A stretch of DNA of 64,000 nucleotides from Planctomycetota bacterium. Lineage in GTDB: Bacteria > Planctomycetota > PLA2 > JAEUHO01. The notes under the pieces were generated by a model. It ran no database searches, was not told the origin of the DNA, and worked only from the letters and a program-made list of their open reading frames with translations. Shown piece by piece: positions 39,588-56,895 of the stretch. Within the stretch, counting starts at the first letter, position 1. Each line of letters starts with the position of its first letter. Location: contig CBDCWP010000010.1 of the NCBI GenBank assembly GCA_965223505.1, forward strand, positions 142,971 to 206,970. The letters run 5' to 3'. Both the position numbers and the translations under genes were made by a program.

Positions 39588-39776
39588 CGTCGGGCGGCTA
39601 CATTCGTCGGGATCTCACGGCATGAGATACGCCGCGGCCGTGAGCACGGCCGCGGTGATCGACGCCTGGAGGTAGAGCCGGCGCGACTTCGCGCGTAGCG
39701 CGTCGCGCAACGCCTCGTCGTCGATCGCTTCCGTCTTGCCGTTCACCTCGCGCACACCCTGTGCGGCGCGCGCGAC

Positions 39777-39974
39777 TCACGTGCCCGCCGCGGCCTGGAA
39801 GAAGCTCAGGCCCGCGACGAACAGCGGCAAGAACAGAAGCAGGCGCCAGGTCTTCGCGAACCCCTGCTGGTCGAACCAGAACAGGATCCCGCCGCAGACC
39901 AGGAGGATCACGAAGCCGCTCCACCAGCGTTTCGAGCGGCCCCCGCGGTCGAGATTGGTCGCGTTCTTGGACAA
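39777..39974 (-). CDS. Possible 65-aa small two-TM membrane protein (DUF2892/YgaP-like flavour)
   Basis: TTG start with a GGGAG Shine-Dalgarno 7 nt upstream. Very high GC3. It is the C-terminal tail of an otherwise spurious long antisense ORF. Confidence 0.3.
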   Translation of the reverse strand: MSKNATNLDRGGRSKRWWSGFVILLVCGGILFWFDQQGFAKTWRLLLFLPLFVAGLSFFQAAAGT

Positions 39975-40031: not shown

Positions 40032-42191
40032 ATGAAACTCCGTCGCGCCCTTTGCCTGATTGTCCTGATCTCGGCCTCCCGAGGACTCTGTGTGCCGAGC
40101 GCAGACGGCGAGGAACGGATCGAGCGGCGCGCGCCGGGCACGATCGTGCTCCGCGGCGACCCCGACCGCGTCGCCGGACACCGCATCGTGCCGGCGTTCC
40201 CGCGGCTGCGGTTCCGGCGGCCGCTCTACTTCGGCTTCCTCCCGGACGGTTCGGGCCGGCTGTGCGTGTTGGAGCAGGACGGACGCGTCTTGCTGTTTCC
40301 CAACGCCGACAACGTCGGCCCGGAGCAGGTCCACGTCGCGCTCGACATCCGGCAGAAGGTCTATCGGAAGCACAACGAAGAGGGCCTGCTCGGCATCGCG
40401 TTCCACCCGCGGTTCGCCGAGAACCGAACGCTGTTCATCCACTACTCGGCCAACGGCCCGCGCCGCGGCGTCGTCTCGCGCTTCCGGATGAATCGCGCGC
40501 GAACGAAGATCGATCCCCGGAGCGAGCGCGTCGTCCTGGAACAGCGCCAACCGTGGGGCAATCACAACGGCGGGGGGCTGGAGTTCGGTCCGGACGGGTA
40601 CCTGTACATCACGTTCGGCGACGGCGGCGCCGGCGGCGACCCCCAGGGCAACGGCCAGAATCTCGGCACGTGGCTGGGCTCGATCTTGCGCATCGACGTG
40701 GATCGCAAGTCGCCGTACGCGGTTCCGCCCGACAACCCATTCGTCAAGCACCGCGGCGCGCGCCCGGAGATCTGGGCGTACGGTCTGCGCAACGTGTGGC
40801 GATTCTCGTTCGACCGGCTGACCGGCGATCTGTGGGCCGGCGACGTCGGTCAGAACGCGTGGGAAGAGATCGACCTGATCGTCAAGGGCGGCAACTACGG
40901 CTGGAAGATCCGTGAAGGCGCGCATCCGTTCCGCGGGCAGGGCCGAACGGAAGGCTTGATCGATCCGGTGATCGAGTTCGACACCTCCCAAGCGCGATCC
41001 ATCACCGGCGGCTACGTGTACCGCGGCAAGAAGCTCCCGGGCCTCGTCGGTACGTACGTCTACGCGGACTATGCGACCGGCAACGTGTGGGGCTTGAAGT
41101 GGGACGGCGAGACGGTGCGCGAGAATCGCTTGCTCGGCCGCGGCCGCAGCGTGTCGAGCTTCGGAGAGGACGCCGACGGCGAAGTCTACTTCACGTCTTT
41201 CGACGGTCGCATCTACACGTTCACACGTCCGCGTCATGCGAACGCGGGCGGGCGATTCCCGCGCAAACTCTCCGAGACGGGTCTGTTCACCGACACCGCC
41301 GCGCTGACGCCGCACGCCTCGCTGATTCCGTACGAGGTCAACGTGCCGCTCTGGTCCGACGGGGCGGCGAAGCAGCGCTACGTCATGCTGCCGGGCATGG
41401 AGCGGGTGCGTGTCGGTGCCGACGGTCGCTTCACGTTCCCCCAGGGCACGATCTTCGTGAAGACGTTCTTCGCCGGCACCTCGGCGAAGGCCCCGCGGCT
41501 CGAGACCCGACTCTTTGCCCGTCGTGACGAGGGTTGGCGGGGCTACACGTACGTCTGGAACGAGGCGCAGACCGACGCCGAGCTGATCGACGGCCGCGTC
41601 ACGGCGCCGACCTCCGCCCAGGCGCGTCGCGCGGGACTGGCCGACCGCTGGACGTTTCCGAGCCGTTCGGACTGCATGAGCTGCCACACGGAGGCAGGGG
41701 GCTCGGTGCTCGGTTTTCGCGCGGAGCAGCTTCACCGCACGAACGAGCACTTCGACGAGGCCACCGTCAGCCGGCTCGAGGTGCTGCAGCGCATCGGCGT
41801 CTTCGAGGAAGGCGCCGACCCACGCGCCGTGACGTCGTTTCCGCGGTGGGACGACGGCAAAGCACCCCTCGACGGCCGGGTCCGCGCGTACCTGGATACG
41901 AACTGCGCGAGCTGTCATCAGCCGGGCGCGCCCGGCAACGCTCGCATCGACCTGCGGTACGACACGCCGCTCGGCGAGTCGCGCATGCTCGAGGAGCCGC
42001 CGGGCGACGACGACCTGGGCGTGCCGAACGCGCGCATCGTCAAACCGGGCCGTCCGAATCAGTCGCTGCTGCTGCTTCGCATGTTACGCACCGACGAGAA
42101 GGGCATGCCGCACATCGCCCACGAGTCGGTCGACCGCAAGGCCGTCGACCTCGTCACGCGATGGATTCGATCGCTGCGTCCGCTGAAGTAG
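40032..42191 (+). CDS. PQQ-dependent sugar dehydrogenase (GSDH/sorbosone dehydrogenase family) fused to a C-terminal dihaem cytochrome c domain (two CxxCH)
   Basis: Signal peptide. HNGGGLEFGPDGYLYITFGDGG and the other GSDH propeller motifs. CMSCH and CASCH haem-binding motifs. Confidence 0.9.
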   Translation: MKLRRALCLIVLISASRGLCVPSADGEERIERRAPGTIVLRGDPDRVAGHRIVPAFPRLRFRRPLYFGFLPDGSGRLCVLEQDGRVLLFPNADNVGPEQVHVALDIRQKVYRKHNEEGLLGIAFHPRFAENRTLFIHYSANGPRRGVVSRFRMNRARTKIDPRSERVVLEQRQPWGNHNGGGLEFGPDGYLYITFGDGGAGGDPQGNGQNLGTWLGSILRIDVDRKSPYAVPPDNPFVKHRGARPEIWAYGLRNVWRFSFDRLTGDLWAGDVGQNAWEEIDLIVKGGNYGWKIREGAHPFRGQGRTEGLIDPVIEFDTSQARSITGGYVYRGKKLPGLVGTYVYADYATGNVWGLKWDGETVRENRLLGRGRSVSSFGEDADGEVYFTSFDGRIYTFTRPRHANAGGRFPRKLSETGLFTDTAALTPHASLIPYEVNVPLWSDGAAKQRYVMLPGMERVRVGADGRFTFPQGTIFVKTFFAGTSAKAPRLETRLFARRDEGWRGYTYVWNEAQTDAELIDGRVTAPTSAQARRAGLADRWTFPSRSDCMSCHTEAGGSVLGFRAEQLHRTNEHFDEATVSRLEVLQRIGVFEEGADPRAVTSFPRWDDGKAPLDGRVRAYLDTNCASCHQPGAPGNARIDLRYDTPLGESRMLEEPPGDDDLGVPNARIVKPGRPNQSLLLLRMLRTDEKGMPHIAHESVDRKAVDLVTRWIRSLRPLK

Positions 42192-42194
42192 CGC

Positions 42195-43178
42195 CTACAA
42201 GAACTTGGTCTTGAGCTTCTCGGCGATCTTCTGCGCTTCCTGGCCTGCCTTGGTGTTCTCGTACTTCTTCTTCGTCAGCGACTTGATGATGGCGTACTGC
42301 TTCTTGTAGTTCGACTCTTCCGCCATCTTCGCTTTGGCCTTCGCGAGCTTCTTGCTGGCATCCACCTCGAGCTTGAGCTCCTTGTCCTTCAGGATCTCCT
42401 TGGCGGCGGCCTGCGCCTGCTTGCCGTAGTCGTGCCCCTTGAACTCCTTGGCGACGCGCTCGTAGGCGAGGAACGCGTCGTACACGTTGCGCTCGCGCAG
42501 CGCCGCCGCCGCCTCCTCGAGCGAAGAGGTCGCGGTCCACTCCAACCAGGCCTTGATCTCGTTCGCGGCTTCCAGCTCGTCGCCTTCGACCTTTTCGCCC
42601 TCGATGGCCGCGTTCACCTTCTTGAGCGCGTCGGCGAACTTCTGCTTGCCGATGGCCTTCTCGACCTTCGAGAGCGACGCCGGGAACGCCGGAAGGAGCC
42701 GGATGCTCGCCAGGGCCTCCTCGATCATCTCGGTGGTGACGGACGCCGGGTGGTCCACGACGAGCACCTTGCCGCGCGCGTCGATCAGAACCGCCGAGGG
42801 GTAGCTGTTGCGGCCGTACGCCGCCATGGAGTCGGTTTTCTCGCTGATGATCGGGTGCTTCGCGTCGGTCTTCTCGATGAACGCCTCGATGCGCGATGCC
42901 GGTTCCTTCGAGATGGAGATGACCGTCAGGCCCTTGGGGCCGTACTTCTCGTGAAGCTCGTCCAGGTGACCCACCTGGTTCACACACGGGCCTCAGGTCG
43001 TTGCGAAGAGCTCGAGGAACACGACGCGCCCGCGCAGGTCCTCGAGGGTGACCGGGTCGGTGTTGAAGAACTCGTCGCCCTCGAAGGCGGCGGCGGGATC
43101 CCCGACCCCGGCGACGGCCGAGGTGCTGGACAGGAGGAGAACGCCGAGGACGGCGCCTGCAACGGCGATCTTGCTCAT
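42195..43178 (-). CDS. Secreted TlpA/ResA-like thioredoxin-fold protein with in-frame TGA at the catalytic Cys position (candidate selenoprotein, U-G-P-C motif) and a C-terminal Lys/Ala-rich helical extension
   Basis: Two same-frame ORFs (42993-43445 and 42195-42983) are separated only by TGA at 42993-42995. Signal peptide MSKIAVAGAVLGVLLLSSTSAVA. Context VVFLELFATT-TGA-GPCV aligns with WCxxC. Hairpin immediately downstream of the TGA. Confidence 0.7.
42962..42978 (-). promoter_or_regulatory. bSECIS-like hairpin (CCAGGUG-GGU-CACCUGG; 7-bp stem, GGU loop) starting 15 nt after the in-frame UGA
   Basis: Perfect inverted repeat read directly from the sequence. The position relative to the UGA fits bacterial SECIS geometry. 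Confidence 0.5.
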
Positions 43179-43231
43179 CGAACACTCCAGATCGAGTTGC
43201 CGCGAGTATAGCGCTACGCGCCGAAATCCGG

Positions 43232-44332
43232 CTACGCGCTCGTCAGCACCACGGCGCCGGCTTGCCCGAGAAGGCCGCCGGTCAGGACCAAGACCCCGTT
43301 CGAGGCCCGTTGGGCGGCCAGCGCGACGACGATCGACTCGTGGGCTGCGGCGAGATACCCCAAGTGCTTCGACGGCGTCCAGGCCTCGGCTTCGAGCGTC
43401 GCAACGGCCGCGTCCGCCTCGGCGCGGGCCGCCGCGGTCGCGCACGGGGGCGTCACGACGAGGGCGATCCGCGCTCGGCGCGCGTCACGCAACGCGCCCT
43501 GAAGCGCCGCCGCCAGCGTCTGTCGTTCGGGCCCGTAGCCCACCGCCGGCCCCGTTGACGCGGCCGATCCGGCGATGGTCGCGAGCGGACGCGCGCCGCG
43601 TCGCTCCGCGTGCGCGCGCGTCTCGATCACCAACGCGCCCGCGCCGTCGCCGGGCTCCAGCGCGTCGAGCTCGAGCTGATCGATCTCGTGCAACGCGACG
43701 GGCGCGCTGCCGACCGACGCGCCGACGACGACGGCGAGGTCGAGCCGTCCGGTCGCAACGGACCGGGCTGCGAGCGAGAGCAGGTGTTGCGACGTCGCGG
43801 AGAACCCCGCCACGCTCGTGTTCGCGCCTTGCAGCTCGTACCAGGTAGCGAGAAACGAGTAGACGTTGTTCTTCAGGTTCTCGAGCAGGAAGAACGGCTT
43901 CACGCGGCGCGCGCACGCCTGGTTGAGGGTCTTTGCCTCGTACGTTCGCCCTTCCGGGTTCGCGGCCACGAACCCCGGCCGGAAGTCCAGGCACGCCCAC
44001 TCGGTTGCGTCGCCCTGTGCGAGATAGAGTCCCTTTCTCGGGCCCGCGATCTCGCCGCCGTCCAGCCCGGCTTGCAGCGCCGCCTCGCGCGTGGCGTCCA
44101 CGGCGAACCGGCCGCTGGCGCTCAGGAACTTGATCTGGCTCTCGAGGTCGCGCGGCACGTCGCAGTGGATCGACGTGTCCTCGATGCGCGCGCCGCGAAC
44201 GGGCGTTGCGCCGTAGAGATTGCGAACGGCGGACGCGCCGGATGTCAGTTGCGACGTCGTGGTATCCACGCCCCGCCCGAGCGCGGTGACGACACCGGCG
44301 CCGGTGATGACGACGTCGCACTTGTCGTTCAC
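43232..44332 (-). CDS. Ketosynthase-like protein lacking the active-site Cys (chain-length-factor-like)
   Basis: GTG start in GTGA overlap with the upstream dehydratase. Thiolase/KS fold, with VAGFSATS in place of the CSS nucleophile. Confidence 0.8.
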   Translation of the reverse strand: MNDKCDVVITGAGVVTALGRGVDTTTSQLTSGASAVRNLYGATPVRGARIEDTSIHCDVPRDLESQIKFLSASGRFAVDATREAALQAGLDGGEIAGPRKGLYLAQGDATEWACLDFRPGFVAANPEGRTYEAKTLNQACARRVKPFFLLENLKNNVYSFLATWYELQGANTSVAGFSATSQHLLSLAARSVATGRLDLAVVVGASVGSAPVALHEIDQLELDALEPGDGAGALVIETRAHAERRGARPLATIAGSAASTGPAVGYGPERQTLAAALQGALRDARRARIALVVTPPCATAAARAEADAAVATLEAEAWTPSKHLGYLAAAHESIVVALAAQRASNGVLVLTGGLLGQAGAVVLTSA

Positions 44333-44781
44333 GACGACTCCGGCGCGCCGCGAAGCATGTCGAACGACCGCCGGGCCGCCTCTCGCGAGGCGAGATCCTC
44401 GAGCGCGGTCACCCGTGCTTCGAACTCGATCACGGCGGCGCGTTCGCCCTCGACCGACGCCTCGGCCCGGTAGGCGCGGCGTGCTTCGTCGTCCGACGCC
44501 GTCCGCTCGATCGACAGGTCCACGCGGTCGCCCGGCGCGGCGAACCGGTAATAGCGGGCGGAGACGACGCGATCCAAGAGCACCCAACGCTCGAACGCCG
44601 AGGACGACGCCTCCATCCAGCCGGCGAGCTGTGCGAGCGCCTCGAGAATCAGCATGCCGGGCAGGATCGGCCGCTCGGGAAAGTGCCACTCGAGGTAGTC
44701 CTCGCTCATGGCCACGTTCTTCCAGCCGGTTGCGCGGTCGGCCTCGATGGACCGGATCCGATCGACGAGCAGGTACCTCAT
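44329..44781 (-). CDS. FabZ/FabA-like hot-dog beta-hydroxyacyl-ACP dehydratase
   Basis: Motifs LLVDRI and EWHFPERPILPGMLILEALAQ. ATGA overlap with upstream acpS. Confidence 0.8.
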   Translation of the reverse strand: MRYLLVDRIRSIEADRATGWKNVAMSEDYLEWHFPERPILPGMLILEALAQLAGWMEASSSAFERWVLLDRVVSARYYRFAAPGDRVDLSIERTASDDEARRAYRAEASVEGERAAVIEFEARVTALEDLASREAARRSFDMLRGAPESS

Positions 44782-45176
44782 GCGCCCGCCCTCTGGAGGA
44801 TCACCGATGCCATGGCGTGCGCGCCGGTGTGGGTCAACGAGACCGACGCTGCTCCGAGCGCCTGCGTGCGGGCGACGCGCAGCGGCCGTCCCGAGAGCCG
44901 AAGCGTCGGCGCGCGGCCTTCCCGCACGACTTCGATCTCCTTGAGCGCGCGGTCGATGCCGGTGGGCGTGATGCCGATGCCCAGCGCCTTGAGCGCGGCC
45001 TCCTTCGCCGCGAAACGGGCCGCGAAGTGCGGCAGCGGATCCGGGTGTCGCCGGCAATAGCTGCGCTCGTCGTCGGTGAACACGCGCGCCTCGAACGCTG
45101 CGTGCCGCGCCATCACATCGCGCAGATGCGCGACGTCGACGAGGTCGATGCCGTGGCGAACCGAGCCCTTCTTCAT
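44778..45176 (-). CDS. acpS: Holo-ACP synthase (AcpS-type 4'-phosphopantetheinyl transferase)
   Basis: GIDLVDV...AAKEAALKALG signature. ATGA overlap with fabG. Confidence 0.85.
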   Translation of the reverse strand: MKKGSVRHGIDLVDVAHLRDVMARHAAFEARVFTDDERSYCRRHPDPLPHFAARFAAKEAALKALGIGITPTGIDRALKEIEVVREGRAPTLRLSGRPLRVARTQALGAASVSLTHTGAHAMASVILQRAGA

Positions 45177-45928
45177 GCGACCGACATCCCTCCGTCGACC
45201 AGGAAACCCTGGCCCGTAATGTAGGCGGCGTCGTCCGAGCAGAGGAAGAGGACCAGGCCCGCCACGTCTTCCGGCGTGCCGAACCGTCCGGCCGGAATGC
45301 GTTCGAGGACCTGATCGCCGGCACGCCGCTTGACCACCGCCGTCATGTCCGTGTCGATGAAGCCGGGCAGAACCGCGTTGGCCTGGATATTGCGCCCCGC
45401 CATCTCCAGGGCGGTGGCGCGCGTGAACGCGAGCACGCCGCCTTTGGCCGCGGCGTAGTTGGCCTGCCCGACGCCGCCGCGCACCGAGCTGATCGAGGCG
45501 ATGTTGACGATGCGACCGGCGCGCGCGCGCATCATCGGCCGCAGCGCGGCGCGCGTGCAGAGATAGACCCCCGTGAGATTCACGTCGATGACGCGCTGCC
45601 AGTCCTCGGGTCGCATCGTGAGCAGCAACGTGTCCTTCACGATGCCGGCGTTGTTCACGAGCGCGTCGAGGCGACCGTGGTCATCGAGCACACGTTCGAA
45701 GAGCGCGCGTACGCCGTCTTCGTTGCCGACGTCGGCCCGGACGGCTTGGGCGCTGCCGCCGGCGGCCTCGATCTCCGCGACCAAGGACGCGGCGTCATCG
45801 GCGGACGACGCGTAGTTGGCGATCACGTGGGCGCCGTTCGCTGCGAGACGCCGGGCCACCGCCCGTCCGATGCCGCGGGAAGCGCCCGTCACGAGCGCGA
45901 CGCGGTCATGCAGGTTGTCGCGAATCAT
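45173..45928 (-). CDS. fabG: 3-oxoacyl-ACP reductase (FabG-type SDR)
   Basis: TGASRGIGRAVA cofactor motif, NNAG, and catalytic S...YAAAK. ATGA overlap with the upstream KS. Confidence 0.9.
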   Translation of the reverse strand: MIRDNLHDRVALVTGASRGIGRAVARRLAANGAHVIANYASSADDAASLVAEIEAAGGSAQAVRADVGNEDGVRALFERVLDDHGRLDALVNNAGIVKDTLLLTMRPEDWQRVIDVNLTGVYLCTRAALRPMMRARAGRIVNIASISSVRGGVGQANYAAAKGGVLAFTRATALEMAGRNIQANAVLPGFIDTDMTAVVKRRAGDQVLERIPAGRFGTPEDVAGLVLFLCSDDAAYITGQGFLVDGGMSVA

Positions 45929-47154
45929 GCGTCGTCTCCGAAAGCCCGCACCGCCAAGACGGCGTTCTGTCCGCCGAACGCGAAGGAGTTGTTCAGCGCG
46001 GCGGTGACCACCGCTTGCCGGCTCGCGTCCGGGACGAGGTCCAGATCGCATGCCGGGTCCGGTTGCGTCAAGTTGCGTGTCGGCGGCACCGCGCCGCGGC
46101 GGATGGCGAGGACGCAGAAGATGAACGCGACGCCGGCCGCGGCCGAGAGCAGATGGCCGATCGCGCCCTTGCCGGACGACACGGCCAACGCGGCGGCGTG
46201 ATCCCCGAACACCGTGTGGATCGCCCGGACCTCGGCGGGGTCGTTGCGCTTCGTCCCGGTCCCGTGGGCGTTGACGAACTGGACCTCGCTCGGCGCGAGT
46301 CCGCCGTCGCGCAGCGCGGCGTCCATGGCTTCCGCGGCGCCGCGGCCGTCCGGCGGCGGTGCGGTCGTGCGATAGGCGTCCAGCGAGGAGCCGTAGCCGG
46401 CCACCTCGGCGTAGATGCGCGCCCCACGGGCGCGGGCGTGTTCGAGCTCCTCGAGCACGACGCAGCCGGCGCCCTCGCCCATGACCAGCCCCGAGCGCTT
46501 GCGGTCGAACGGCTTGCAGGCCGCGGCCGGATCGTCCCCGACCGAAGCGGAGGCGCCCAGCAGCACGAAGAAGACGAGTCCCAGCGGGTTGATCATCGAG
46601 TCCGCGCCGCCGGCGATCATCCAGTCCGTCTCGCCCCGGCGAATGCTGCGAAACGCGGCGCCGAGCGCCTGGTTGGACGCGGAGCAGGCCGTGGTCACCG
46701 CGTGCACCGGACCGCCGAGACCCAATTCCCGGGCCAACAGTACGGCCGGCAGCTCCGCCGTGTTGCGGATCAGACTCTCCGGATGGACCGCCGCCGCATC
46801 GTCGACGCCGACGTCCTCGAGCCGGTGGACGCCGGGGCCGGAACCCAGGATCACGCCGGCCCGGTCGTGCGCCCCGCGTTCGATGCCGGCGTCGGCAGCC
46901 GCGTTCGTTCCGGCGGCGACGCCGAACAGCGTGCGCAGATCGCATGCCGCGGCGGCAGGCAGGGAGGTGCGCAGGCGCTCGACCACGGCGTCGTCGACCT
47001 CGCCGACCGCGCCCGTGGGGGGGCGCGTCGCACCGTGCCGCCGCGACGCCGTGACGCCCGCGTCTCCGCCCAGCATGCGCTCCCACACCGTGTCCACGTC
47101 GTCTCCGAACGGTGTGACCAGCCCCAGCCCTGTGATGACCACGCGCCGGCTCAT
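45925..47154 (-). CDS. Beta-ketoacyl-ACP synthase (KS, active-site Cys present)
   Basis: TTACSAS nucleophile, NAHGTGT and GHLLSAAG His motifs. ATGA overlap with the upstream dehydratase. Confidence 0.9.
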   Translation of the reverse strand: MSRRVVITGLGLVTPFGDDVDTVWERMLGGDAGVTASRRHGATRPPTGAVGEVDDAVVERLRTSLPAAAACDLRTLFGVAAGTNAAADAGIERGAHDRAGVILGSGPGVHRLEDVGVDDAAAVHPESLIRNTAELPAVLLARELGLGGPVHAVTTACSASNQALGAAFRSIRRGETDWMIAGGADSMINPLGLVFFVLLGASASVGDDPAAACKPFDRKRSGLVMGEGAGCVVLEELEHARARGARIYAEVAGYGSSLDAYRTTAPPPDGRGAAEAMDAALRDGGLAPSEVQFVNAHGTGTKRNDPAEVRAIHTVFGDHAAALAVSSGKGAIGHLLSAAAGVAFIFCVLAIRRGAVPPTRNLTQPDPACDLDLVPDASRQAVVTAALNNSFAFGGQNAVLAVRAFGDDA

Positions 47155-47594
47155 GCGCCGAGGACCCCGCCGTAGTACGCGAACCGCTTCCGCAGGACGT
47201 CGGGTTCGGGATGGGGGAGATGACCGTACAAGACCCGGCCGATGCGCGCGACCTCGACCCCGTCGACCTCAGCCCACGCGTGCCCGATCGACCCCTTGGG
47301 GTTCGTGCCCCGTAGCTCGCCGAAGAGCGTCAGCGTGCGCCCGGGACCGATCTCGGGGACCACCTCGACGTCCTCCAGCACCGAGAGAACGACCATGAGC
47401 GTGTAGTCGTGGCGGTGGATCGCGAGCCAACCGAGGAGCTGCACCATCGCCTCGATGATCAGCGACGACGGCACGAGCGCCCTGCGATCGAAGTGGCCGC
47501 GCAGGTACTCCTCGGAGATCGACAGTGACTTCACGCCCTCGATGCGGTTGCCGGGCTCGAAACGGGTGACGCGGTCGAAGAGAAGGAATCTCAC
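47151..47594 (-). CDS. FabZ-like hot-dog dehydratase
   Basis: GTG start (GGAG Shine-Dalgarno) in GTGA overlap with the upstream stop. Sequence FLLFDRVTRFEPG...LGWLAIH. Confidence 0.75.
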   Translation of the reverse strand: MRFLLFDRVTRFEPGNRIEGVKSLSISEEYLRGHFDRRALVPSSLIIEAMVQLLGWLAIHRHDYTLMVVLSVLEDVEVVPEIGPGRTLTLFGELRGTNPKGSIGHAWAEVDGVEVARIGRVLYGHLPHPEPDVLRKRFAYYGGVLGA

Positions 47595-48541
47595 GGCGAC
47601 TCCAACAGGATCGCAGCGCAACCGCCGTGGCTGGCCCGCGTGAGCACGAGCGCGCTGCCCGCGCCGGTCGCGTGGAAGTGGTCCACGCAGGCGACGAGAT
47701 CGACGAGCGGTTCCGCCGCGCCGCGGCTCGAGCGCACGGCGCCGCGTTGCTCGACCAGCGCATCGGCGAGGCCGTAGGCCTGGAGCTCGAACCACAGGTC
47801 CAGTGGCGCGCGGACGTGCCCGACGCTCTGCGGATCGCGTTCTCGAAGCACCGTGCGAATGGCGCGCGTGCAGGCGTCGCCGGAGCCGTACTCGAAGGTC
47901 GACGTTCCCGCGACGACGAAGGCCAGGGCAGCGACCCCTCGATCCTTCGCCGACGCCTCCGACTCGAGCACGCACGCCGCGCCCGCCTGCTCGCGTTCGG
48001 CCGGCTCACCCCGCAGCGCGTCCCGTAGCCGGGCGGGCGTCGTCAGGTCCTCGGACACGCCCGCGCACAGCGCGGCCTGTGCGGCGCCTTCGTCGATGGC
48101 GTGATGGGCTTCGATGAGCGCGCGCATGCCGGCATCGGACTCGCTGGCCAGGACGGCGTTGTCTCCGCGAATGCCGAGGTCGGTGGCGATCTGTCCCGCC
48201 GCGACGTTGTTCAGCATCGCGAGCGGCCACAACGGGTGAATCGAACGGTACGCGCCCGCGAAGAAGCGGGCTTCGTCGATCCGCCCGTCCACGCGCGACG
48301 CGTCGGCGGCCGCGACGAGATCGTCGGCGCCGTCGACCATGCCCATGCCGAAGAAGAGCCCCACGCGGCGCGGGTCCAGCTCCTGCAGACGTCCCCGGCG
48401 GTACGCCTCCGGCGCGACCGTCTCCAACATCCGACCGTGCGCGCCGAGAATGCGGAGCGCCGGATCGGCATCGACGTCCATCACGTCCGACGACGCCATG
48501 TCGCTTCGACACGCGGCCGTGATCGCGACGCGCCCGGCCAT
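47591..48541 (-). CDS. KS-fold protein without catalytic Cys (chain-length-factor / KS-beta-like)
   Basis: LASESDAG in place of the Cys nucleophile. Start overlaps the upstream KS stop by 1 nt (TGATG). Confidence 0.8.
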   Translation of the reverse strand: MAGRVAITAACRSDMASSDVMDVDADPALRILGAHGRMLETVAPEAYRRGRLQELDPRRVGLFFGMGMVDGADDLVAAADASRVDGRIDEARFFAGAYRSIHPLWPLAMLNNVAAGQIATDLGIRGDNAVLASESDAGMRALIEAHHAIDEGAAQAALCAGVSEDLTTPARLRDALRGEPAEREQAGAACVLESEASAKDRGVAALAFVVAGTSTFEYGSGDACTRAIRTVLRERDPQSVGHVRAPLDLWFELQAYGLADALVEQRGAVRSSRGAAEPLVDLVACVDHFHATGAGSALVLTRASHGGCAAILLESP

Positions 48542-49830
48542 CAAGCAGCCGGTCCCAGGCACAGACAGCCGTTCTGCCCGCCGAACCCGAACGAACTGGA
48601 GAGCACGACCGAGTGTTCCATCTCGCGCGCCTCGTTGGGCACGTAGTCGAGGTCGCAGCGCCGGTCGGGAAACTCGTAGTTGATCGTGGGGAGCACCACG
48701 CCGTCGCGCATGCCGCGAAGGCTCAGGATCGCTTCGATCGCGCCCGCGGCGCCGATCGTGTGCCCGAGCATGCTCTTGTTGCTGGAGACAGGCACCCGCG
48801 CGGCGCGCCCGCCGATCACGCGCTTGATCGCGAGCGTCTCGACGGGGTCGTTGGTCGGTGTCGAGGTGCCGTGGGCGTTCACGTAGTCGACGTCGTCGGG
48901 CGTGAGCCCGGCGTCGCGGATCGCGCGCCGCATGGCGAGCACGGCCCCGTCGCCGCGCGGATGCACGTCGGTGATGCGATAGGCGTCGGCCGAGTCTCCG
49001 TATCCGAGGATCTCGCCGAGCGCGTCCACCCCCCGCGCGCGTGCGTTCGCGAGCGTCTCCAGGATCAAGATGCCGGCGCCTTCGGCGATCACGAAGCCGT
49101 TGCGCTTTCGATCGAACGGTCGGGACGCGGCCTGCGGCGATGGATAGCGCCTGGTGAGCGCACCGAGAATGGCGAACCCGAGGTAGCCCGAGTAGGACAG
49201 CAACGGCTCGGCGCCACCGGTGACGACGGCGTCGGCGCGGCCCTCCCGTAGGAGCCGTGTCGCCTCGCCGATGGCCTGCGCACCCGCGGCGCACGCGCTC
49301 ACGATCGGCAGCGCCGCGCCGCGCGCGTCGACGTAGTTCGCCAACAGCGCCGGCGCCGCGTCGGGCTGACGGACGGTGAATTGGCGGCTGTCGTACTGCG
49401 CCTCCCCGGCGAGGCCGGCGGCGTCCAGCACGCCGTCGTCGTCGGTATGGCGAACGTAGCGGTCGATCTCGGCGATGCCGGGGGTCGAGCCGTGGCCGCC
49501 GAGCACGACGGCGACGCGGGTGCGGTCCTCGATCTCGTCGAGCTTCGCGGTGCGGCGCGCGTCGTCGGTGGCCGTGCGTGCGAGGCGTAGCTCGGAGCCG
49601 CCCCGCTCGTCGTCCGGGTGCGGCGGCGCGAGATCGTCGTCATCGATCTGGCCGGCGATGTCGCACGGCAGGCCCGTGGCGTCGAAGCGGCGCACGACGT
49701 CCACGCCCGAGCGGCCCGCGCGCATGGCCGCGAAGACGTCGTCCAGGTCGCGGCCGAGCGGTGTGACGAGCCCCATGCCGGTGACGACGACGCGCTGCCG
49801 CGGGTCGATGTCGTCACGGCCCGCGAGCAC
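48541..49830 (-). CDS. Beta-ketoacyl-ACP synthase II (FabF-like)
   Basis: VVVTGMG, SACAAG nucleophile, NAHGTSTP, KSMLGHTIGAAG. Confidence 0.9.
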   Translation of the reverse strand: MLAGRDDIDPRQRVVVTGMGLVTPLGRDLDDVFAAMRAGRSGVDVVRRFDATGLPCDIAGQIDDDDLAPPHPDDERGGSELRLARTATDDARRTAKLDEIEDRTRVAVVLGGHGSTPGIAEIDRYVRHTDDDGVLDAAGLAGEAQYDSRQFTVRQPDAAPALLANYVDARGAALPIVSACAAGAQAIGEATRLLREGRADAVVTGGAEPLLSYSGYLGFAILGALTRRYPSPQAASRPFDRKRNGFVIAEGAGILILETLANARARGVDALGEILGYGDSADAYRITDVHPRGDGAVLAMRRAIRDAGLTPDDVDYVNAHGTSTPTNDPVETLAIKRVIGGRAARVPVSSNKSMLGHTIGAAGAIEAILSLRGMRDGVVLPTINYEFPDRRCDLDYVPNEAREMEHSVVLSSSFGFGGQNGCLCLGPAA

Positions 49831-49834
49831 GGGG

Positions 49835-50407
49835 CTAGGCCCCCGCGAAGAGCTTCTGCTCGGACTCGACCTTCTGGATCCACTGTTGGATCAACACGTC
49901 TCCGTCGGGGTAGACGCAGTCCGCGCCGCATGCCCCGCACTTGACGCGGGCGCCGTCCTCGCTCTTCCACGTGTCCTGCGCGTTGCAGGCGGTGCACGCC
50001 TGTGGCAGGTGGTCCAGGATGTTCGCTACGCCGTCCGCGACGATCTTCGGTGTGACGAGCGCGGGGATCTCGTCGGCGTACAAGCCGGCTTCGAGCGCGT
50101 CGAGATCGCCCATGTACATGCGCAGCAGCTTCGCCGCCGGCTCCGTGATCTTGTTGTCCCTGTCGATGGCGACGCCGTCGCCCAGCTGCTCCTCGACGTG
50201 GTCCAGGATCAGCTGCGAGGCGAGCTGGATGCCGAACGCGTTCTCGAGCCGGAAGTTCACGTCGAGGAAGTCGATGGACGTGGCCTGGAGCGACTTGACG
50301 ACCGAGGCGTCCATCGCGATGTCGTCCTCGTTCAGGCGGAGGGTCGCGGCCAGGGCGCTGCGGACTTCGGCCTCGATGCGTTCGCGACTGACGAGCGGGT
50401 TCGACAT
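49835..50407 (-). CDS. Acyl carrier protein fused to a C-terminal Cys-rich (CxxC-x17-CxxCxxxC) zinc-ribbon-like domain
   Basis: ACP signature ATSIDFLDVNFRLENAFGI (phosphopantetheine Ser), then about 110 extra residues ending ...CTACNAQDTWKSEDGARVKCGACGADC.... Confidence 0.75.
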   Translation of the reverse strand: MSNPLVSRERIEAEVRSALAATLRLNEDDIAMDASVVKSLQATSIDFLDVNFRLENAFGIQLASQLILDHVEEQLGDGVAIDRDNKITEPAAKLLRMYMGDLDALEAGLYADEIPALVTPKIVADGVANILDHLPQACTACNAQDTWKSEDGARVKCGACGADCVYPDGDVLIQQWIQKVESEQKLFAGA

Positions 50408-50475
50408 CGATCGGGGTCTCCGGGGCGGCGGGTCGGTGTACCCGGCACTCGGGGCGTTTGCAAGGCGTGCGAAGG

Positions 50476-51234
50476 TCAGTCGGCGCTCCCGCGAAACAGC
50501 CGATTGGAGAGGCCCCGATCTACCACGAGCGTTTGTCCCACCACGCCCGCCGACCCGGCGCCGCACAGGAAACGGACCGCGGCGGCCACCTCCGCTTCGG
50601 GCACGAAGAACCGCTCGGGCAGCGACTCGAGCTCCGGCCAGACCCGCCGCAGCGTCTTGTAGGCGTCCGTCTTGACCAGGCCCGCGCAGACGGCGTTCGC
50701 GCGAATGCCCCGCGGACCCAGCTCTTCGGCCCACTGTCGCGTCATCGACTCCATGGCGGCCTTGATCGGTCCGAGGGGGTACTGGCGGTTCATGAATCGC
50801 GAGCCCAGACTCGAGATGAACACGATCGATCCCCCCTGGCGCTCCAGCAGGGGCAGCGCCTTCTGAACGCAATAGACGTTGCCCAGCAGATTCGTGTCGA
50901 CCAGCTGCCGCAGGTCACGCTCCAGCAACCGCGCCGTGTCCTTGAACGGTGCGCGCGCCGCGTTGAGCACGAGGATGTCGAGGCGGCCGAACGCCTCCTG
51001 CACGCCGGACAGGAGCGCGTCGACCTGTTCTTTCGACGCGATGTCCGCACCGACGAAGGTCGCCCGACGCCCGAGCGCGGCCACGGCCTCCACGGTCTCG
51101 TCGGCGGCGCGTCCGGGCGCGCGTCCATGGACCACGACGTCGGCGCCGTCCCCGGCGAGCCGTAACGCGATCGCGCGGCCGATGCCGCGGCTGCTGCCGG
51201 TGACCAGTGCGACCTGTCCGTCGAGGGTTCCCAT
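50476..51234 (-). CDS. SDR family oxidoreductase (second ketoreductase-like enzyme of the operon)
   Basis: VTGSSRGIGRAIA, NAA, and catalytic S...Y...K. Confidence 0.85.
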   Translation of the reverse strand: MGTLDGQVALVTGSSRGIGRAIALRLAGDGADVVVHGRAPGRAADETVEAVAALGRRATFVGADIASKEQVDALLSGVQEAFGRLDILVLNAARAPFKDTARLLERDLRQLVDTNLLGNVYCVQKALPLLERQGGSIVFISSLGSRFMNRQYPLGPIKAAMESMTRQWAEELGPRGIRANAVCAGLVKTDAYKTLRRVWPELESLPERFFVPEAEVAAAVRFLCGAGSAGVVGQTLVVDRGLSNRLFRGSAD

Positions 51235-51341
51235 TGCGGCGAATCGTACCGGCCCGGATCGTCCATGAACACGTGTTGCGTCGCGGGGGACCCGTACGAT
51301 CCAAAGTAGCGCCGGGGTTCCCGCTCCGTACCATCCTGCGC

Positions 51342-52523
51342 ATGACGATTGCGATCGAGGACCGCGTGGCAGTCAAAGAGACGACCAGAACCGTGCGCAA
51401 CTTCCAGGCGTTGAGCTCGCTCTTCGATGCGATCGAGTCCGGCGAGACGCCGAAGCCCCGATTGGATCGATCTCGCCGGCGACGCCCGGCTCACGTCGCT
51501 GGACGACGAGCAGCTGCGCGGCGTCCTCGCGCGGATTCACGCGTGCACGTTGCGGGGGGTTCAAGGCCAACAACGTGAAGAAGCGCGGGAAGCAGGAGTT
51601 CCTGCGCTACTGGCAGTCGATCACCCGGAGCGGGTTCCACGACTTCGCGGAAGACTGCTGGATGAAGTGCTACGACTCGCCGCACGTCGAGAACTACGAC
51701 TACGTACAGGCGTACCTGGACCGCGGGCTCGACGCGCTCGACCCCTACATGGTGTATTCGTCCGTTCTCGGCACGTGGGAGTACTCCGTCGAGGACTTCG
51801 TCAACACGGAGCTCTGCCGCGACGTGCAGACCGTCGTGGAGCCGCTGGCAGGCAGCGCCGAGTTCTGCCACACGGGGCACTTCCGGTATCCGGACATGAA
51901 GCTTTTTCATGTTCGACCTCGACGAAGAGGCCAAGAAGCACGTCGAGGAGAAGTTCTGGCACCCGCAGACGCGGCGCGAGTACCTGATCGGCGACGCGCT
52001 TGCGGAGGAGACCTGGAAGCAGGTCAAGGCCTTCTCGCACGGGAAGTCGCTCAGCTACATCGGCAAGCAGAGCCACAACTTCTTCGACACGAAGGAGCTC
52101 GTGCAGCTGCTCGACTGGGGTACGCGGTACACCGACTACTTCATGCTCGAGGTGAGTGAACCCTATCTCGTCGAAGACGAGCCCACGCGCGACGATCTCA
52201 CTCGGCGCGAGATGAAGGCCGCGGGATTCCGCGTGGCGCTCGACGACGTCGACGACCTCGTCCCGAACCCGTTGACGAACCGGCTCGACTTCAGCTTGAT
52301 CGCGTGGAACAAGGCGGGCGACAAGCGCACGCTGTTCGACTATCTCGGTTGGATCGGGTGGCAGGCGCCGACGCTGACCGCGCTCGGTCGTTTCCTCGGT
52401 CTGGAGTGCATGTACTTCCACTCGGAGGACACCGAGTTCCTGCCCGTCACCGAGGGCACGGAGACGTCCGACTGCCGCGAGAACAACACGTTCCTGCTGT
52501 TCCGACGGCCCGCCGACGCGTAG
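51342..52523 (+). pseudogene. Hypothetical ~390-aa protein whose reading frame is broken three times by single-base insertions in C4, G6 and T5 homopolymer runs
   Basis: Four consecutive ORF pieces in frames 0, 1, 2, 2 read continuously if one base is removed at 51456-51459 (CCCC), 51554-51559 (GGGGGG) and 51913-51917 (TTTTT). High GC3 throughout. Confidence 0.5.
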
Positions 52524-52946: not shown

Positions 52947-53168
52947 CGAAGCTCCTCGTGCGAGATTTTCCTCACAGGCGTGGGGTCCCGTTCTCAGCTG
53001 CGCAGCGGGTGCTCTCGACACAACCTCCTCCCGTAGGCGAAGTTGGCCCGTTTTCGGCCCGGAACGGGTGCTGAGGACGCTCCGAATACGCAAGAGCGGG
53101 ACCGATTCGGCGTCCGGTGCCCGCGGCACGCCCTTCGCGCAGTGGCGCACACTCCCGGAGGGCTTGAC

Positions 53169-55301
53169 ATGGCTACCCGCAAGACCGTGTTCGTCGCGAT
53201 CGTCGTCGGCATCGCGTGTGTCGTGGCGGTTCAGGTGTCGGCGCAGGAGGGGCTGCCGGAGCGCAGTCCCGGCACCGTACGCCTCGAAGGAGACCCGGAC
53301 GGTCTGCCGGAGTACACGATCGTCAAAGCGTTCCCGAATCTGCGGTTCGAGCGGCCGACGTGCATTGCGAGCCCGCGCGACGGCTCGGACTCGCTGTTCG
53401 TCGCGGAGCAGGACGGCCGGATCAAGGGCTTCGAGAACGATCGCGACACCAAGAAGACCTGGGTGGCGCTCGACATCCGGAAGAAGGTCTCGCGTCAACA
53501 CAACGAGGAGGGCCTGCTGGGTCTCGCCTTCGATCCGGCGTTCAAGAAGAACCGCGCCGTCTTCGCGTACTACAGCACGTCGGAGCCGCGGCGGACGGTG
53601 CTGATGCGCTACAAGGCGACGTCGAACCGCCGGTACTTCGATCGACGCAGCGAGTCGTTGGTGCTGCGTCAGCGGCAACCAACCGGCAGCCACAACGGTG
53701 GCTGCATGGCCTTCGGTCCCGACGGCATGTTGTACCTGTCCATCGGTGACGGCGGCGAGGCCGGCGATCCGCACGGCCATGGCCAGAACCTGCAGGACTG
53801 GCTCGGCACGATCTTGCGCATCGACGTGAGCGGCGCACAGCGCTTCGCGGTGCCGCCCGACAATCCCTTTGCCAACACCCAGCACGTTCGGCCGGAGATC
53901 TGGGCGTACGGCTTCGCGAACGTCCGGGGCCTCGGATTCGACAGCGTCACCGGCGACCTGTGGGCCAGCGACGCGGGCGCCGGCAAGTTCGAGGAGATCA
54001 ACCACGTCCGGGCGGGTTCGAACTACGGCTGGCCGCTTCGCGAGGGCGCGGACGTTCACAGCAAGGGGAACGCGTTGACGCCCCTGCGGGGGCCCGTTGC
54101 GGTGTTCCCGCGCGGCACCGCGCGGCGACTGGTGGGCGGCATCGTCTATCGCGGCCGGCGTCTGCCGCAGCTCGTCGGCGCGTATCTCTGCGCCGACTAC
54201 GAGACCGGCACGATGTGGGCGCTGCGCTTCGACGGGACGCGCGTCAAGGAACGACGTCGGCTGGGCCGCGCGCCCGGCATCACGCACTTCGGAACGGACG
54301 CAGCGGGGGAGGTGCTCTGCACGGCCGCTGACGGCTACGTCTACACGCTCGCGCCGTGGAGCGGGGACAAGTCCAAGGCCGTCTTCCCGCAACGTCTGTC
54401 CGAGACGGGTCTCTTCAGCGACATCGCGTCGGTGACGCCGATCCCGGCGTTGATCCCGTACGACGTGAGCACGCCGCTCTGGTCGGACGGCGCCGGCAAG
54501 TCGCGGTTCGTCATGCTGCCCGATCTCGAGAAAGTCAAGATCGCCAAGGACGGCACGTACGACTTCCCGGTGGGCACGATCTTCGTCAAGCACTTCTTCC
54601 AGGGTGCGACGATCGAATCGGCGTTTCGCCGCCTGGAGACGCGGCTGTACACGCGCGGCGCGGAGGGATGGGCCGGCTACACGTACGTGTGGTCGGACGA
54701 CCGGTCGGACGCGTTCCTCATCGACGGTCGTGTGGAGAAGACGTTTCAAAGCGACGGAAAGGTGTCGAAGTGGACGTTCCCGAGTCGCGGCGACTGCTCC
54801 AGCTGCCACACTGCCGTCGCCAACGAGATCCTCGGCTTCCGGCGCGAGCAGCTCGACATCTCGATGAAGTACGGCGACCTGGAGATGAACCAGCTCGACG
54901 CGCTGGAGGCGATGGGAGTGTTCGAGGGCAAGAACAAGCGCAAGCACACCTGGCCGGCGTGGCCGGCGGAGGGCGAGGACCTCGACAGGCAGGTGCGGGC
55001 CTACCTCGACGCCAATTGCGCGATGTGCCACCAGCCGGACGGCCCGGGGAACGCCAACATCGACCTGCGCTACGACACGCCGTTGAAGAAGACGAACGTG
55101 CTTGATCGCAAGCCGGGCATGTGGAACCTCGGGGTCTTCGACGCGCGGCTCATCGCGCCGGGCGATCCGGAGCGGTCGATCCTGTACCTACGCATGAAGC
55201 GCACCGACCTGAAGGGCATGCCGACGATCGCGCACAACATCCCGGACGAGAACGCGCTCGCGCGCATCGAGAAGTGGATCCGGGCGATGCCGAAGAAGTA
55301 G
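53169..55301 (+). CDS. Paralogue of the PQQ-dependent sugar dehydrogenase / dihaem cytochrome c fusion protein
   Basis: Signal peptide (MATRKTVFVAIVVGIACVVAVQVSA). Same architecture and collinear similarity to 40032-42191, including CSSCH and CAMCH. Confidence 0.9.
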   Translation: MATRKTVFVAIVVGIACVVAVQVSAQEGLPERSPGTVRLEGDPDGLPEYTIVKAFPNLRFERPTCIASPRDGSDSLFVAEQDGRIKGFENDRDTKKTWVALDIRKKVSRQHNEEGLLGLAFDPAFKKNRAVFAYYSTSEPRRTVLMRYKATSNRRYFDRRSESLVLRQRQPTGSHNGGCMAFGPDGMLYLSIGDGGEAGDPHGHGQNLQDWLGTILRIDVSGAQRFAVPPDNPFANTQHVRPEIWAYGFANVRGLGFDSVTGDLWASDAGAGKFEEINHVRAGSNYGWPLREGADVHSKGNALTPLRGPVAVFPRGTARRLVGGIVYRGRRLPQLVGAYLCADYETGTMWALRFDGTRVKERRRLGRAPGITHFGTDAAGEVLCTAADGYVYTLAPWSGDKSKAVFPQRLSETGLFSDIASVTPIPALIPYDVSTPLWSDGAGKSRFVMLPDLEKVKIAKDGTYDFPVGTIFVKHFFQGATIESAFRRLETRLYTRGAEGWAGYTYVWSDDRSDAFLIDGRVEKTFQSDGKVSKWTFPSRGDCSSCHTAVANEILGFRREQLDISMKYGDLEMNQLDALEAMGVFEGKNKRKHTWPAWPAEGEDLDRQVRAYLDANCAMCHQPDGPGNANIDLRYDTPLKKTNVLDRKPGMWNLGVFDARLIAPGDPERSILYLRMKRTDLKGMPTIAHNIPDENALARIEKWIRAMPKK

Positions 55302-55308
55302 CCGCCGG

Positions 55309-56178
55309 CTATTTCTTCTTCGCGGCCTTCTTCTTGGCGGCCTTCTTGGCCGCCTTCTTCTTCGCAGCCTTCTTCTTCACAGCCTTCTTGGCCGCTTTCT
55401 TCTTGGCCGCCTTCTTCTTCGAAGCCTTCTTCTTCGCTGCCTTCTTCTTCGAAGCCTTCTTCTTGGCGGCCTTTTTCTTCGCGGCCTTCGGCGCCTTCTT
55501 GGCCGCCTTCTTCTTCTTGGCCTTCGCCCGCAGCTGGCGTCGTAGCTCCAACGCGCGCTTGCGGGTCTTCTCCTTCAGCGCCGCACGGTTGGCCTCGGCT
55601 TCGGCGAGCGCCTCCGCGGACGGCGCGGACTGCATGTCCTCGGGCATGCTGACGTCCGGTCCGTGGTCGAGCGCCTCGCGCGCGCCGCTGAGGCGACGAT
55701 CCCACACCTCGATCTCCTCGGGCCGGATGTGAGGCCAGATCTTGGACCGCATCTGGAGCGACAGAATGCCGATCACGGTCAGCTGGTGCCGGAGGGTCAT
55801 TCCGGGAATTCCGGCCGCCGGCACGTCGGGCCAGATGCCGGGGTTCTTCGCCGGGGGCACGTCGGGCGGGTAGGGATCCCCGAACCCGGGCAGCATGGGC
55901 AGGAACATGGAGGAGTACGCACGCTGGACCCGCCGGCCCCATTCTTCACGCTCCGGACCGGCGTGATACCCCAGCTGCCGCATCTCCCGGCAGATCCAGA
56001 TGAGGTAGTCGAGGATCGACCGGAGGGTCTCGCCGGGCCGCACCTGCGACTCGATTTCCGGCCATGCGGTGTTCAACACGTCCTCCCTGTCCCGTTGGCG
56101 AGGCAGGATCCAGGGCCAGGGTGAGAATTGCAAGCATCCTGCCACCAGGCCGTTTCGGTCGCACGAACCAAAGTCCAT
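55309..56178 (-). CDS. Hypothetical protein with ~90-aa C-terminal Lys/Ala-rich (AKKA-repeat, histone H1-like) tail
   Basis: Globular N-terminal ~200 aa, then KAKKKKAAKKAPKAAKKKAAKKKASKKK.... Start placed at the internal ATG 56178; weak Shine-Dalgarno, so uncertain. Confidence 0.55.
   Translation of the reverse strand: MDFGSCDRNGLVAGCLQFSPWPWILPRQRDREDVLNTAWPEIESQVRPGETLRSILDYLIWICREMRQLGYHAGPEREEWGRRVQRAYSSMFLPMLPGFGDPYPPDVPPAKNPGIWPDVPAAGIPGMTLRHQLTVIGILSLQMRSKIWPHIRPEEIEVWDRRLSGAREALDHGPDVSMPEDMQSAPSAEALAEAEANRAALKEKTRKRALELRRQLRAKAKKKKAAKKAPKAAKKKAAKKKASKKKAAKKKASKKKAAKKKAAKKAVKKKAAKKKAAKKAAKKKAAKKK
55312..55535. repeat. Imperfect tandem 9/15-nt repeats (GCCTTCTTCTTGGCGGCC-like) encoding the Lys/Ala tail
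   Basis: Seen in sequence. This is coding low complexity, not a CRISPR array (no spacers). Confidence 0.6.
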
Positions 56179-56343
56179 GAAACGAAAGGACTTGTGGAGA
56201 TCCGCATTTCTCCTGCCGCGGCTCGCCCCCTGGTCGCGAGGAAGGCGAAGGAGTAAGGTGGCCGTCGAGACGCGGGAACGGGCCTTCCCTGTTGCCGGGG
56301 CGCCCCTCTTGCGACGTTCGCCGAGTCCCCCGGCGTTCCCGCC

Positions 56344-56895
56344 GTGCTCATCCGCATGGAGCCCTTCCACATGTCGCGGGTACGCGTCCGCCTACGCATG
56401 GACGAGCTGCGCCTCGAATTCGAGGGCGAGCAACGCTTCTTCGACCGTTGGGTCGCTCCGCTGATGGAGATCGCCTACGAGCGGCGCGACGTCGCGGTGT
56501 CCGCCAACGCGGGCGACGGCGCGAGCGTGCCGAGAACGGGATCGGCACCGCCCGAGCCGTCCCACAAGACCGGCGAGCCCGAGGGCTACCTGCCGCAGTC
56601 CGTGCACTTCGCCAAGTTCCTGCGCCAGGTGGGGGACCGGGCGCCCCAGCCGGACCAGCAGGTCATGGCGTTCGCGTTCTTCCTGTGGAACTACGAGCAG
56701 ATCGAGATCTGGGGCCTCGAGGAGATCCGCGGATGCTTCGGGGCCGTCGGGCTGCCGGTGCCCGACGACATCGGTGCGATGCTCGACGATCTCGCACGGC
56801 GGCGACGCTTCCTCGAGTCCGCCGGAGACGGTGCCTGGCGGTCGACCCGCAAAGGCGTCAACTACGTCAAGAACCGGCTGCTGGCGCCGCCGTAG
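56344..56895 (+). CDS. Hypothetical protein (divergent from the Lys/Ala-tailed protein gene)
   Basis: Very high GC3 and a coherent sequence (FLWNYEQIEIWGLEEIRGCFGAVGLPVPDDIGAMLDDL). Start uncertain. Confidence 0.5.
   Translation: MLIRMEPFHMSRVRVRLRMDELRLEFEGEQRFFDRWVAPLMEIAYERRDVAVSANAGDGASVPRTGSAPPEPSHKTGEPEGYLPQSVHFAKFLRQVGDRAPQPDQQVMAFAFFLWNYEQIEIWGLEEIRGCFGAVGLPVPDDIGAMLDDLARRRRFLESAGDGAWRSTRKGVNYVKNRLLAPP

Follow-up and report, generated by a model that had tools for sequence, protein, structure and literature searches.

A gene on the minus strand of a 64-kb stretch of Planctomycetota DNA (contig CBDCWP010000010.1; we call the whole stretch that was analyzed the window) very probably encodes a genuine selenoprotein, a predicted exported oxidoreductase of the TlpA/ResA/DsbE type in which selenocysteine (Sec, or U) replaces the first Cys of the active site to give U-G-P-C. 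The gene, at 43178..42195, reads as a single frame through one internal TGA; the fold of the protein and the position of U within it are recognizable, the TGA and a hairpin 3′ of it are conserved among relatives, and there are homologues with Cys in place of U. A preliminary description of this DNA had interpreted the locus as a selenoprotein gene, and the sequence comparisons reported here support that interpretation.

Reading Frame and Conservation of the TGA

The locus consists of two open reading frames (ORFs), 42993..43445 and 42195..42983, that lie in the same frame and have the TGA at 42995-42993 as their sole separator; every coordinate in the preliminary description proved correct. 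Translation through the TGA yields a product of 327 residues, MSKIAVAGAVLGVLLLSSTSAVAG...LFATT-U-GPCVNQVGHLDELHEKYG..., in which U stands in the context VVFLELFATT-U-GPCVNQVGHLDELHEKYG. As had been predicted, the annotation of the locus is split, and the source record holds a 262-residue fragment (P0001). A scan for promoters and terminators around the gene found none. The features of the gene are collected in Table 1.

Among 5.8 billion proteins, a word-indexed search picked out eight close homologues, all of them fragments of about 257 residues that begin just past the TGA column, and one full-length homologue, 25% identical, with the motif CPPC (P0009), to whose first Cys the U aligns. Orthologues were gathered from the contigs of the homologues and from a scan of one genome per GTDB species; the window's own genome was not returned. 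The TGA stands at the identical column in all 12 distinct Sec orthologues (motif F[SAR]T[TGW]-U-GPC), which come from independent metagenome-assembled genomes (MAGs) or metagenomes and share 36-89% pairwise identity, and it is found again in all three of the more distant relatives that were checked on their contigs (about 29-35% identity; FAYW-U-GPC, YAHW-U-GPC, and WATW-U-GPC). The matches from the genome scan, seven of seven, belong to MAGs of Planctomycetota or Planctomycetia, and one of the seven, L016 (JAEUHO010000147.1), has TGC in place of TGA (FRTWCGPC). A second Cys orthologue, at 355-1359 of L022 (protein P0014), likewise has TGC and the motif CGPC. Contig L001, labeled genus JAEUHO01 in its European Nucleotide Archive (ENA) name, carries the Sec form, and the JAEUHO01 contig L016 carries the Cys form; Sec and Cys versions, be they orthologues or paralogues, may coexist in closely related genomes.

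In the orthologues, the protein sequence is conserved both before and after the TGA, and in a single frame. Because residues 5′ of the TGA are conserved in that same frame (F32, G34, E36, F37, N39, T40, R49, G50, E56, F58, and T60), the N-terminal 61 codons appear to be translated jointly with the rest. The Cys-containing homologues are uninterrupted single ORFs.

The C-terminal fragment also served as the query of an exhaustive HMMER search through 1.8 billion representative proteins, in which 970 matches had E ≤ 1e-3 and 241 had E ≤ 1e-10. Among the 156 family representatives that were examined, 37 are full length and 119 fall short of 300 residues, the latter mostly starting with xHL(N/D)EL just past the motif. 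The U column of these 37 holds Cys in 24, which bears out the proposed placement of the TGA at the catalytic Cys, Ser in 9, Asp in 2, Asn in 1, Tyr in 1, and Trp, which the preliminary description had said would refute the proposal, in none; the column at +3 is Cys in 31 of the 37. Roughly one in three full-length homologues (among the representatives, P0036, P0042, P0045, P0046, P0063, P0084, P0094, P0096, P0111, and P0118) has lost the first redox residue, mostly to Ser, as in FRTWSTAC and AHTQSEPC, and some of these are also without the second Cys. Their alignment suggests that such homologues derive from the same two-domain protein and are noncatalytic or monothiol.

Two readings of the locus that dispense with recoding can be weighed against these results. 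A pseudogene or an assembly error, in which TGC (Cys) or TGG (Trp) was mutated to or misread as TGA, would leave one in-frame stop and a locus that gene callers split, as they have done in producing P0001. We regard this as exceedingly improbable: the TGA column is identical in 15 independently assembled and differing genes (the 12 orthologues and 3 distant relatives), which also answers the concern raised earlier that the TGA is a misread TGG; protein-level conservation persists in both halves; most family representatives in the library of 1.8 billion proteins are cut off at this position; and no homologue has Trp at this column. The second reading invokes two small genes, one for a 61-residue secreted peptide ending at the TGA and one for a 262-residue protein initiated at the GTG at 42983. 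The GTG lies 10 nt past the TGA and the 262-residue product is present in databases, but such a division would sever the thioredoxin fold between strand β1 and the active-site helix and leave the second product with neither signal peptide nor nucleophile. Moreover, the homologues with Cys are not divided, and the first start codon 3′ of the TGA differs in position among the orthologues. We judge two genes to be very unlikely.

The Hairpin 3′ of the TGA

Bacterial selenocysteine insertion sequence (bSECIS) elements follow a consensus with a loop of 3-9 nt, an upper stem of 4-16 base pairs (bp), a UGA-to-loop distance of 16-37 nt, and a minimum free energy no higher than −7.5 kcal/mol; G stands at either the first or the second position of the loop and is usually followed by G or U (PMC13188914). 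The hairpin in the window begins 14 nt 3′ of the UGA and has a perfect 7-bp stem, a GGU loop, a UGA-to-loop distance of 21 nt, and an energy of −9.7 kcal/mol bare or −10.8 kcal/mol with flanks. The SECIS-like geometry claimed for it thus agrees with the published consensus, and the Sec forms retain the hairpin, which the Cys forms lack. A stem of 6-7 bp, closed by GGU, GUU, GUC, or CGUGC, is retained in all 12 Sec orthologues; each of the 12 hairpins is free of bulges and passes the rules for stem, loop, G, and spacing, with energies of −7.7 to −11.2 kcal/mol when flanks are included. In the Cys form L016 the peptide reads QAPHLT, the stem is broken, and the core energy is −0.6 kcal/mol. The Cys form L022 (P0014) keeps the peptide QVGHL, and its codons, CAG GTC GGG CAC CTC, break the stem.

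Codon choice at the hairpin follows the same division. The codon for Leu at +10 is CTG in 12 of 12 Sec forms and CTC in both Cys forms, and Gln CAG, His CAC, Leu CTG, and Gly+1 GGC are each fixed in the 12; at ten other conserved Leu columns, a single codon accounts for 50-82% of uses in eight and 90-92% in two. Third-position identity over the seven codons from +6 is the second highest in the gene. Since synonymous sites are fixed here and the stem is missing in both Cys orthologues, we infer that the hairpin is under constraint at the level of RNA as well as protein.

Observations Weighing against Sec Insertion

A number of observations count against the selenoprotein interpretation, most of them concerning the hairpin. 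When folded bare, the hairpins of 4 of the 12 Sec forms miss the limit of −7.5 kcal/mol (L004 and L007, −7.4; L012 and L017, −6.4). In this window of 68% GC, a consensus hairpin at least as stable as the one described is found after 5.2% of the positions sampled and after 4.5% of all UGA triplets, the chance rate at the −7.5 kcal/mol threshold is 12-13%, and the 63-nt region is no more stable than its shuffles (z −0.69). None of the seven stem pairs shows a double change that would constitute covariation, the stem sequence itself being conserved, and because the stem lies over codons of the conserved peptide Q-V-x-H-L-D, protein constraint accounts for some of its conservation. Two of the three distant Sec forms (L020 and L021) are without a simple bulge-free consensus hairpin, and in the Cys orthologue L022 another hairpin is present, of 4 bp and marginal at −7.5 kcal/mol. 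An Rfam scan of the whole window at gathering thresholds gave no match, a result we take to be uninformative for bSECIS elements; to our knowledge, a general model for bacterial SECIS elements is not among the Rfam families. As for the decoding machinery, no selA, selB, or selD was seen among the translations of ORFs with high third-position GC (high-GC3) in the window, which were read by inspection, or in the fetched loci, and ARAGORN found no tRNA, hence no tRNA-Sec, in the window or in 12 loci. The large ORFs of the window read, on inspection only, like MutS2-like, HtpG, ABC-transporter, and ketosynthase proteins. Because the hairpin alone is weak evidence, the case rests on the comparison with other sequences.

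The absence of Sec machinery from the window and fetched loci, together with a hairpin that by itself is an event of about 5% and shows no covariation, would also fit a selenium-free read-through of the UGA, either by near-cognate insertion of Trp or Cys or through a lineage-wide reassignment, with the hairpin stimulatory or incidental. We nevertheless consider this unlikely. TGA terminates at least 13 high-GC3 ORFs in the window, contrary to a reassignment; the column is a redox-active Cys in homologues and never Trp; and the exchange of TGA for TGC together with gain or loss of the hairpin is the standard signature of a Sec/Cys pair (PMC1794560, PMC13188914). Furthermore, the Sec-decoding trait is known in Planctomycetes, several of which (P1, P2, Gemmata obscuriglobus, and Isosphaera pallida) have the complete Sec machinery (PMC4807772).

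The stops of the high-GC3 ORFs of at least 150 codons in the window are TAG in 34, TGA in 13, and TAA in 1. We rejected a genome-wide reassignment of UGA, as TGA is the ordinary stop of many window genes. This pattern of stop-codon use is unusual for a genome of 68% GC; among related loci, L001, L013, L014, L016, and L018 prefer TGA, and L010, L015, and L017 lean to TAG.

Domains, Fold, and Export Signal

The N-terminus of the selenoprotein candidate has a Lys at position 3, a hydrophobic core at residues 4-17 (mean Kyte-Doolittle hydropathy 2.58), and an AVA motif. By inspection, a comparable signal-peptide-like N-terminus is present in all orthologues, and the model of the Cys orthologue P0014 is of low confidence over residues 1-30. 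With U replaced by C, a Pfam scan returned AhpC-TSA (1.5e-16) and Redoxin (4.1e-13), and the score against PF00578 (AhpC/TSA), 60.9, passes the gathering cutoff of 26. A peroxiredoxin (Prx) identity was rejected despite this score. The peroxidatic Prx motif is PxxxTxxC/U (PMC13188914), and it is absent from the protein, which has no Pro at −7, has Thr at −2 and not −3, and carries its resolving Cys at +3 as thioredoxins do.

The top NCBIfam match of the U-to-C protein is ResA (E 2.7e-19), with TlpA and DsbE weaker, and all three scores fall below the respective cutoffs (ResA NF002854, 69.7 versus 170; TlpA NF047696, 34 versus 230; DsbE TIGR00385, 16.6 versus 123.15). Curated selenoprotein families are also matched below cutoff (NF041054 WAxxUGC_long, 42.6 versus 300; NF041382, 20.5 versus 350), and three further members of the family show the same pattern. 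Judged by these scores, the protein is a relative of ResA, TlpA, and DsbE without being orthologous to any of the three.

The structure was modeled for P0014, the full-length Cys orthologue, which is 43% identical, from a 40-sequence alignment. The AlphaFold model (pLDDT 92, pTM 0.85) has a DsbE/ResA/TlpA/CcmG-like fold in which the CGPC residues, 68-71, follow a strand at 58-63 and lie at the start of helix α1 (DSSP helix from 69); as modeled, it is where the nucleophilic Cys canonically sits. The cis-Pro position, P127, is invariant.

The Lys/Ala/Glu-rich helical extension that had been described at the C-terminus was found as such: these three residues make up 49% of the C-terminal 168 residues versus 25% of the N-terminal domain, and the P0014 model has eight helices between residues 173 and 333, with pLDDT mostly above 90. 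In the model, then, the C-terminal domain is a confident helix bundle rather than a disordered tail. Its sole Pfam entry, PF21912, is unusable (E 0.67, 10.5 bits versus a cutoff of 27), and it has no relative among PDB sequences. The C-terminal half does weakly match NF041382, with profile positions 186-347 aligned to residues 160-319 (E 2.4e-4; for L004, E 5.8e-5).

Genomic Neighborhood

The ketosynthase-like ORF upstream of the gene ends (TAG) at 43232, in agreement with the 53-nt gap to the upstream operon given in the preliminary description. On the other side, the pyrroloquinoline quinone (PQQ)-dehydrogenase/cytochrome gene at 40032..42191 does adjoin, as was said, but it is not a downstream operon partner: it lies on the plus strand and is convergent, with the two stops 3 nt apart. 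The gene is situated, both in the window and at loci L001, L002/L011, and L015, between an aryl-polyene-like fatty-acid synthase (FAS) cluster, which contains several ketosynthases, KR, ACPS, and FabA/ApeI-like dehydratases, and a convergent GSDH-type dehydrogenase. Synteny with the synthase cluster is confined to the FST[TG]-U clade; in the FRTW-U clade the neighbors differ. The dehydrogenase at 40032-42191 is a conserved convergent neighbor in four lineages, and its counterparts in the other loci are 59-60% identical to that of the window, which has two CxxCH motifs. No ccm, res, DsbD, or CcdA was noticed in reading the ORF translations, which were not searched against Pfam.

Two other features of the window were observed in passing. 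The dehydrogenase gene at 40032-42191 (+) has a paralogue at 53037-55301 (+), both being fusions of GSDH (a PQQ-type β-propeller dehydrogenase) with a C-terminal part carrying two CxxCH motifs. The product of the ORF at 55309-56391 (−) carries at its C-terminus a long tail of Lys/Ala repeats (AKKKKAAKKAPKAAKKKAAKKKASKKK), like histone H1-like or DNA-binding tails.

Table 1. Features of the candidate selenoprotein gene and the adjoining synthase cluster (window coordinates unless a locus is named)
Feature	Coordinates	Strand	Remarks
Probable selenoprotein gene, complete	43178..42195	−	327 codons plus TAG stop; single internal UGA
Start codon ATG	43178-43176	−	Read from the sequence
Shine-Dalgarno-like GGAG, 6 nt 5′ of the ATG	43185..43188	−	Read from the sequence; putative function
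In-frame TGA, codon 62, predicted Sec62, position 1 of U-G-P-C	42993..42995	−	Conserved in relatives
Codon TGT of the resolving Cys, residue 65	42984..42986	−	Invariant among orthologues
Stop codon TAG	42197-42195	−	Read from the sequence
Predicted Sec-type signal peptide, residues 1-24 (MSKIAVAGAVLGVLLLSSTSAVA, then G)	43107..43178	−	Hydropathy and inspection
TlpA/ResA/DsbE-like thioredoxin-fold domain, residues 25-159	42702..43106	−	
SECIS-like hairpin CCAGGUG-GGU-CACCUGG, within the codons of Q-V-G-H-L-D	42962..42978	−	Folding and conservation
C-terminal all-helical Lys/Ala/Glu-rich domain, residues 160-327, no assigned family	42198..42701	−	Model of an orthologue
Type II FAS/aryl-polyene-like cluster, directly upstream	43232-51400; L001 1259-9621; L015 5552-9855	− (window)	

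A Possible Second Selenoprotein Gene

At a distance of 2.2 kb from the gene described above is a candidate for another selenoprotein gene, at 39613-39974 (−). Its frame opens with TTG at 39974, is interrupted by TGA at 39779-39777, and closes with the stop at 39615-39613. Its product (...FFQAAAGT-U-VARAAQG...) has two predicted transmembrane helices before the TGA and one after it. A coding GC pattern (0.74/0.51/0.91, P about 1e-4) persists through the 53 codons after the TGA, and a strong hairpin is found 3′ of the UGA (−29.3 kcal/mol, z −2.25). There was no significant Pfam match (POTRA, E 0.32 only) and no NCBIfam match, and the only homologue among the 5.8 billion proteins is the candidate's own 65-residue fragment, P0012, with none in the fetched loci. 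A second selenoprotein gene at 39974..39613 is thus possible, though comparison lends it no support.

Discussion

If the selenoprotein interpretation is correct, the hairpin 14 nt 3′ of UGA-62 would recruit SelB-GTP-Sec-tRNA(Sec), so that Sec is inserted and translation does not terminate. The Sec translocon would export the pre-protein, and its signal peptide would be removed. In the periplasm, Sec62 and Cys65 would cycle between the selenol/thiol and selenenylsulfide states, perhaps reducing or perhaps isomerizing the disulfides of partner proteins, and the folded helical C-terminal domain probably provides partner binding. By analogy with ResA and CcmG, we would guess that the neighboring PQQ-type dehydrogenase, with its two CxxCH heme c motifs, is a candidate substrate.

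The replacement of Cys by Sec in exported CxxC oxidoreductases is already known, and the window gene is an ordinary example of it. Selenoproteins with a thioredoxin fold and a UxxC motif have been catalogued since 2005-2008, in groups that are Prx-like, thiol-disulfide isomerase-like (cd02966), of the Redoxin family, or UGC-containing and TlpA-like (PMC1088965, PMC1794560, PMC2398784, PMC13188914). The window gene resembles these in its AhpC-TSA/Redoxin-type domain, in having Sec as the first residue of UxxC and aligned to Cys, in the SECIS hairpin within the coding sequence just downstream, and in being annotated, as they usually are, in truncated or split form. Unlike the catalogued groups, insofar as their descriptions permit comparison, the subfamily of the window gene combines a helical C-terminal domain of about 170 residues with a predicted signal peptide, and every taxonomically placed locus is a Planctomycetota MAG.

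The window protein shares with ResA, TlpA, and CcmG (DsbE) the context (W/F)xTx-C/U-xPC and a conserved cis-Pro, its N-terminus resembles an export signal like theirs, and a c-type cytochrome gene adjoins its family in four lineages; it differs from them in having Sec for the first Cys, an extra helical domain, and scores far below cutoff. NF041382 (VPGUxxT type 1) is similar in length (349 versus 327 residues), in its two-part layout, and in the weakly matching helical half, but its motif is VPGUxxT rather than F-x-T-x-U-G-P-C and the N-terminal domains do not match. NF041054 is TlpA-like with U in the active site, and its thioredoxin domain aligns (E 4.5e-11), but it has U-G-C and an N-terminal extension of about 90 residues where the window protein has U-G-P-C. 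Among the selenoprotein candidates of planctomycete P1 from Porphyra are a split "thiol-disulfide isomerase-like thioredoxin" and AhpC/TSA proteins (PMC4807772, S9 table). By description, these match the window gene in phylum and in kind of protein, are split by UGA into adjacent genes, and have closest matches with Cys; two of them, unlike the window gene, were reported without a detectable SECIS (PMC4807772). Sequence searches indicate that the subfamily combining U-G-P-C with the helical domain is large and is matched by no NCBIfam model at cutoff.

None of this changes selenoprotein biology, and the value of the finding, which is modest, lies mainly in annotation. Where the 262-residue fragment is annotated, predictions of domain, export, and redox function are wrong at this locus in these Planctomycetota, and a full-length family profile with an exception for Sec would mend more than 100 cluster representatives. 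The gene also marks its organism as a probable user of Sec, even though the window shows no Sec machinery. We suggest, tentatively, that the family is a large and uncurated one, its taxonomically placed members so far all from Planctomycetota, with more than 100 representatives (at 50% clustering) that appear truncated at Sec and with one clade in which a PQQ-type dehydrogenase-cytochrome c fusion and an aryl-polyene-like FAS cluster are fixed neighbors, and that with a second, orphan membrane selenoprotein possible in the same window, the lineage may prove to be rich in selenium.

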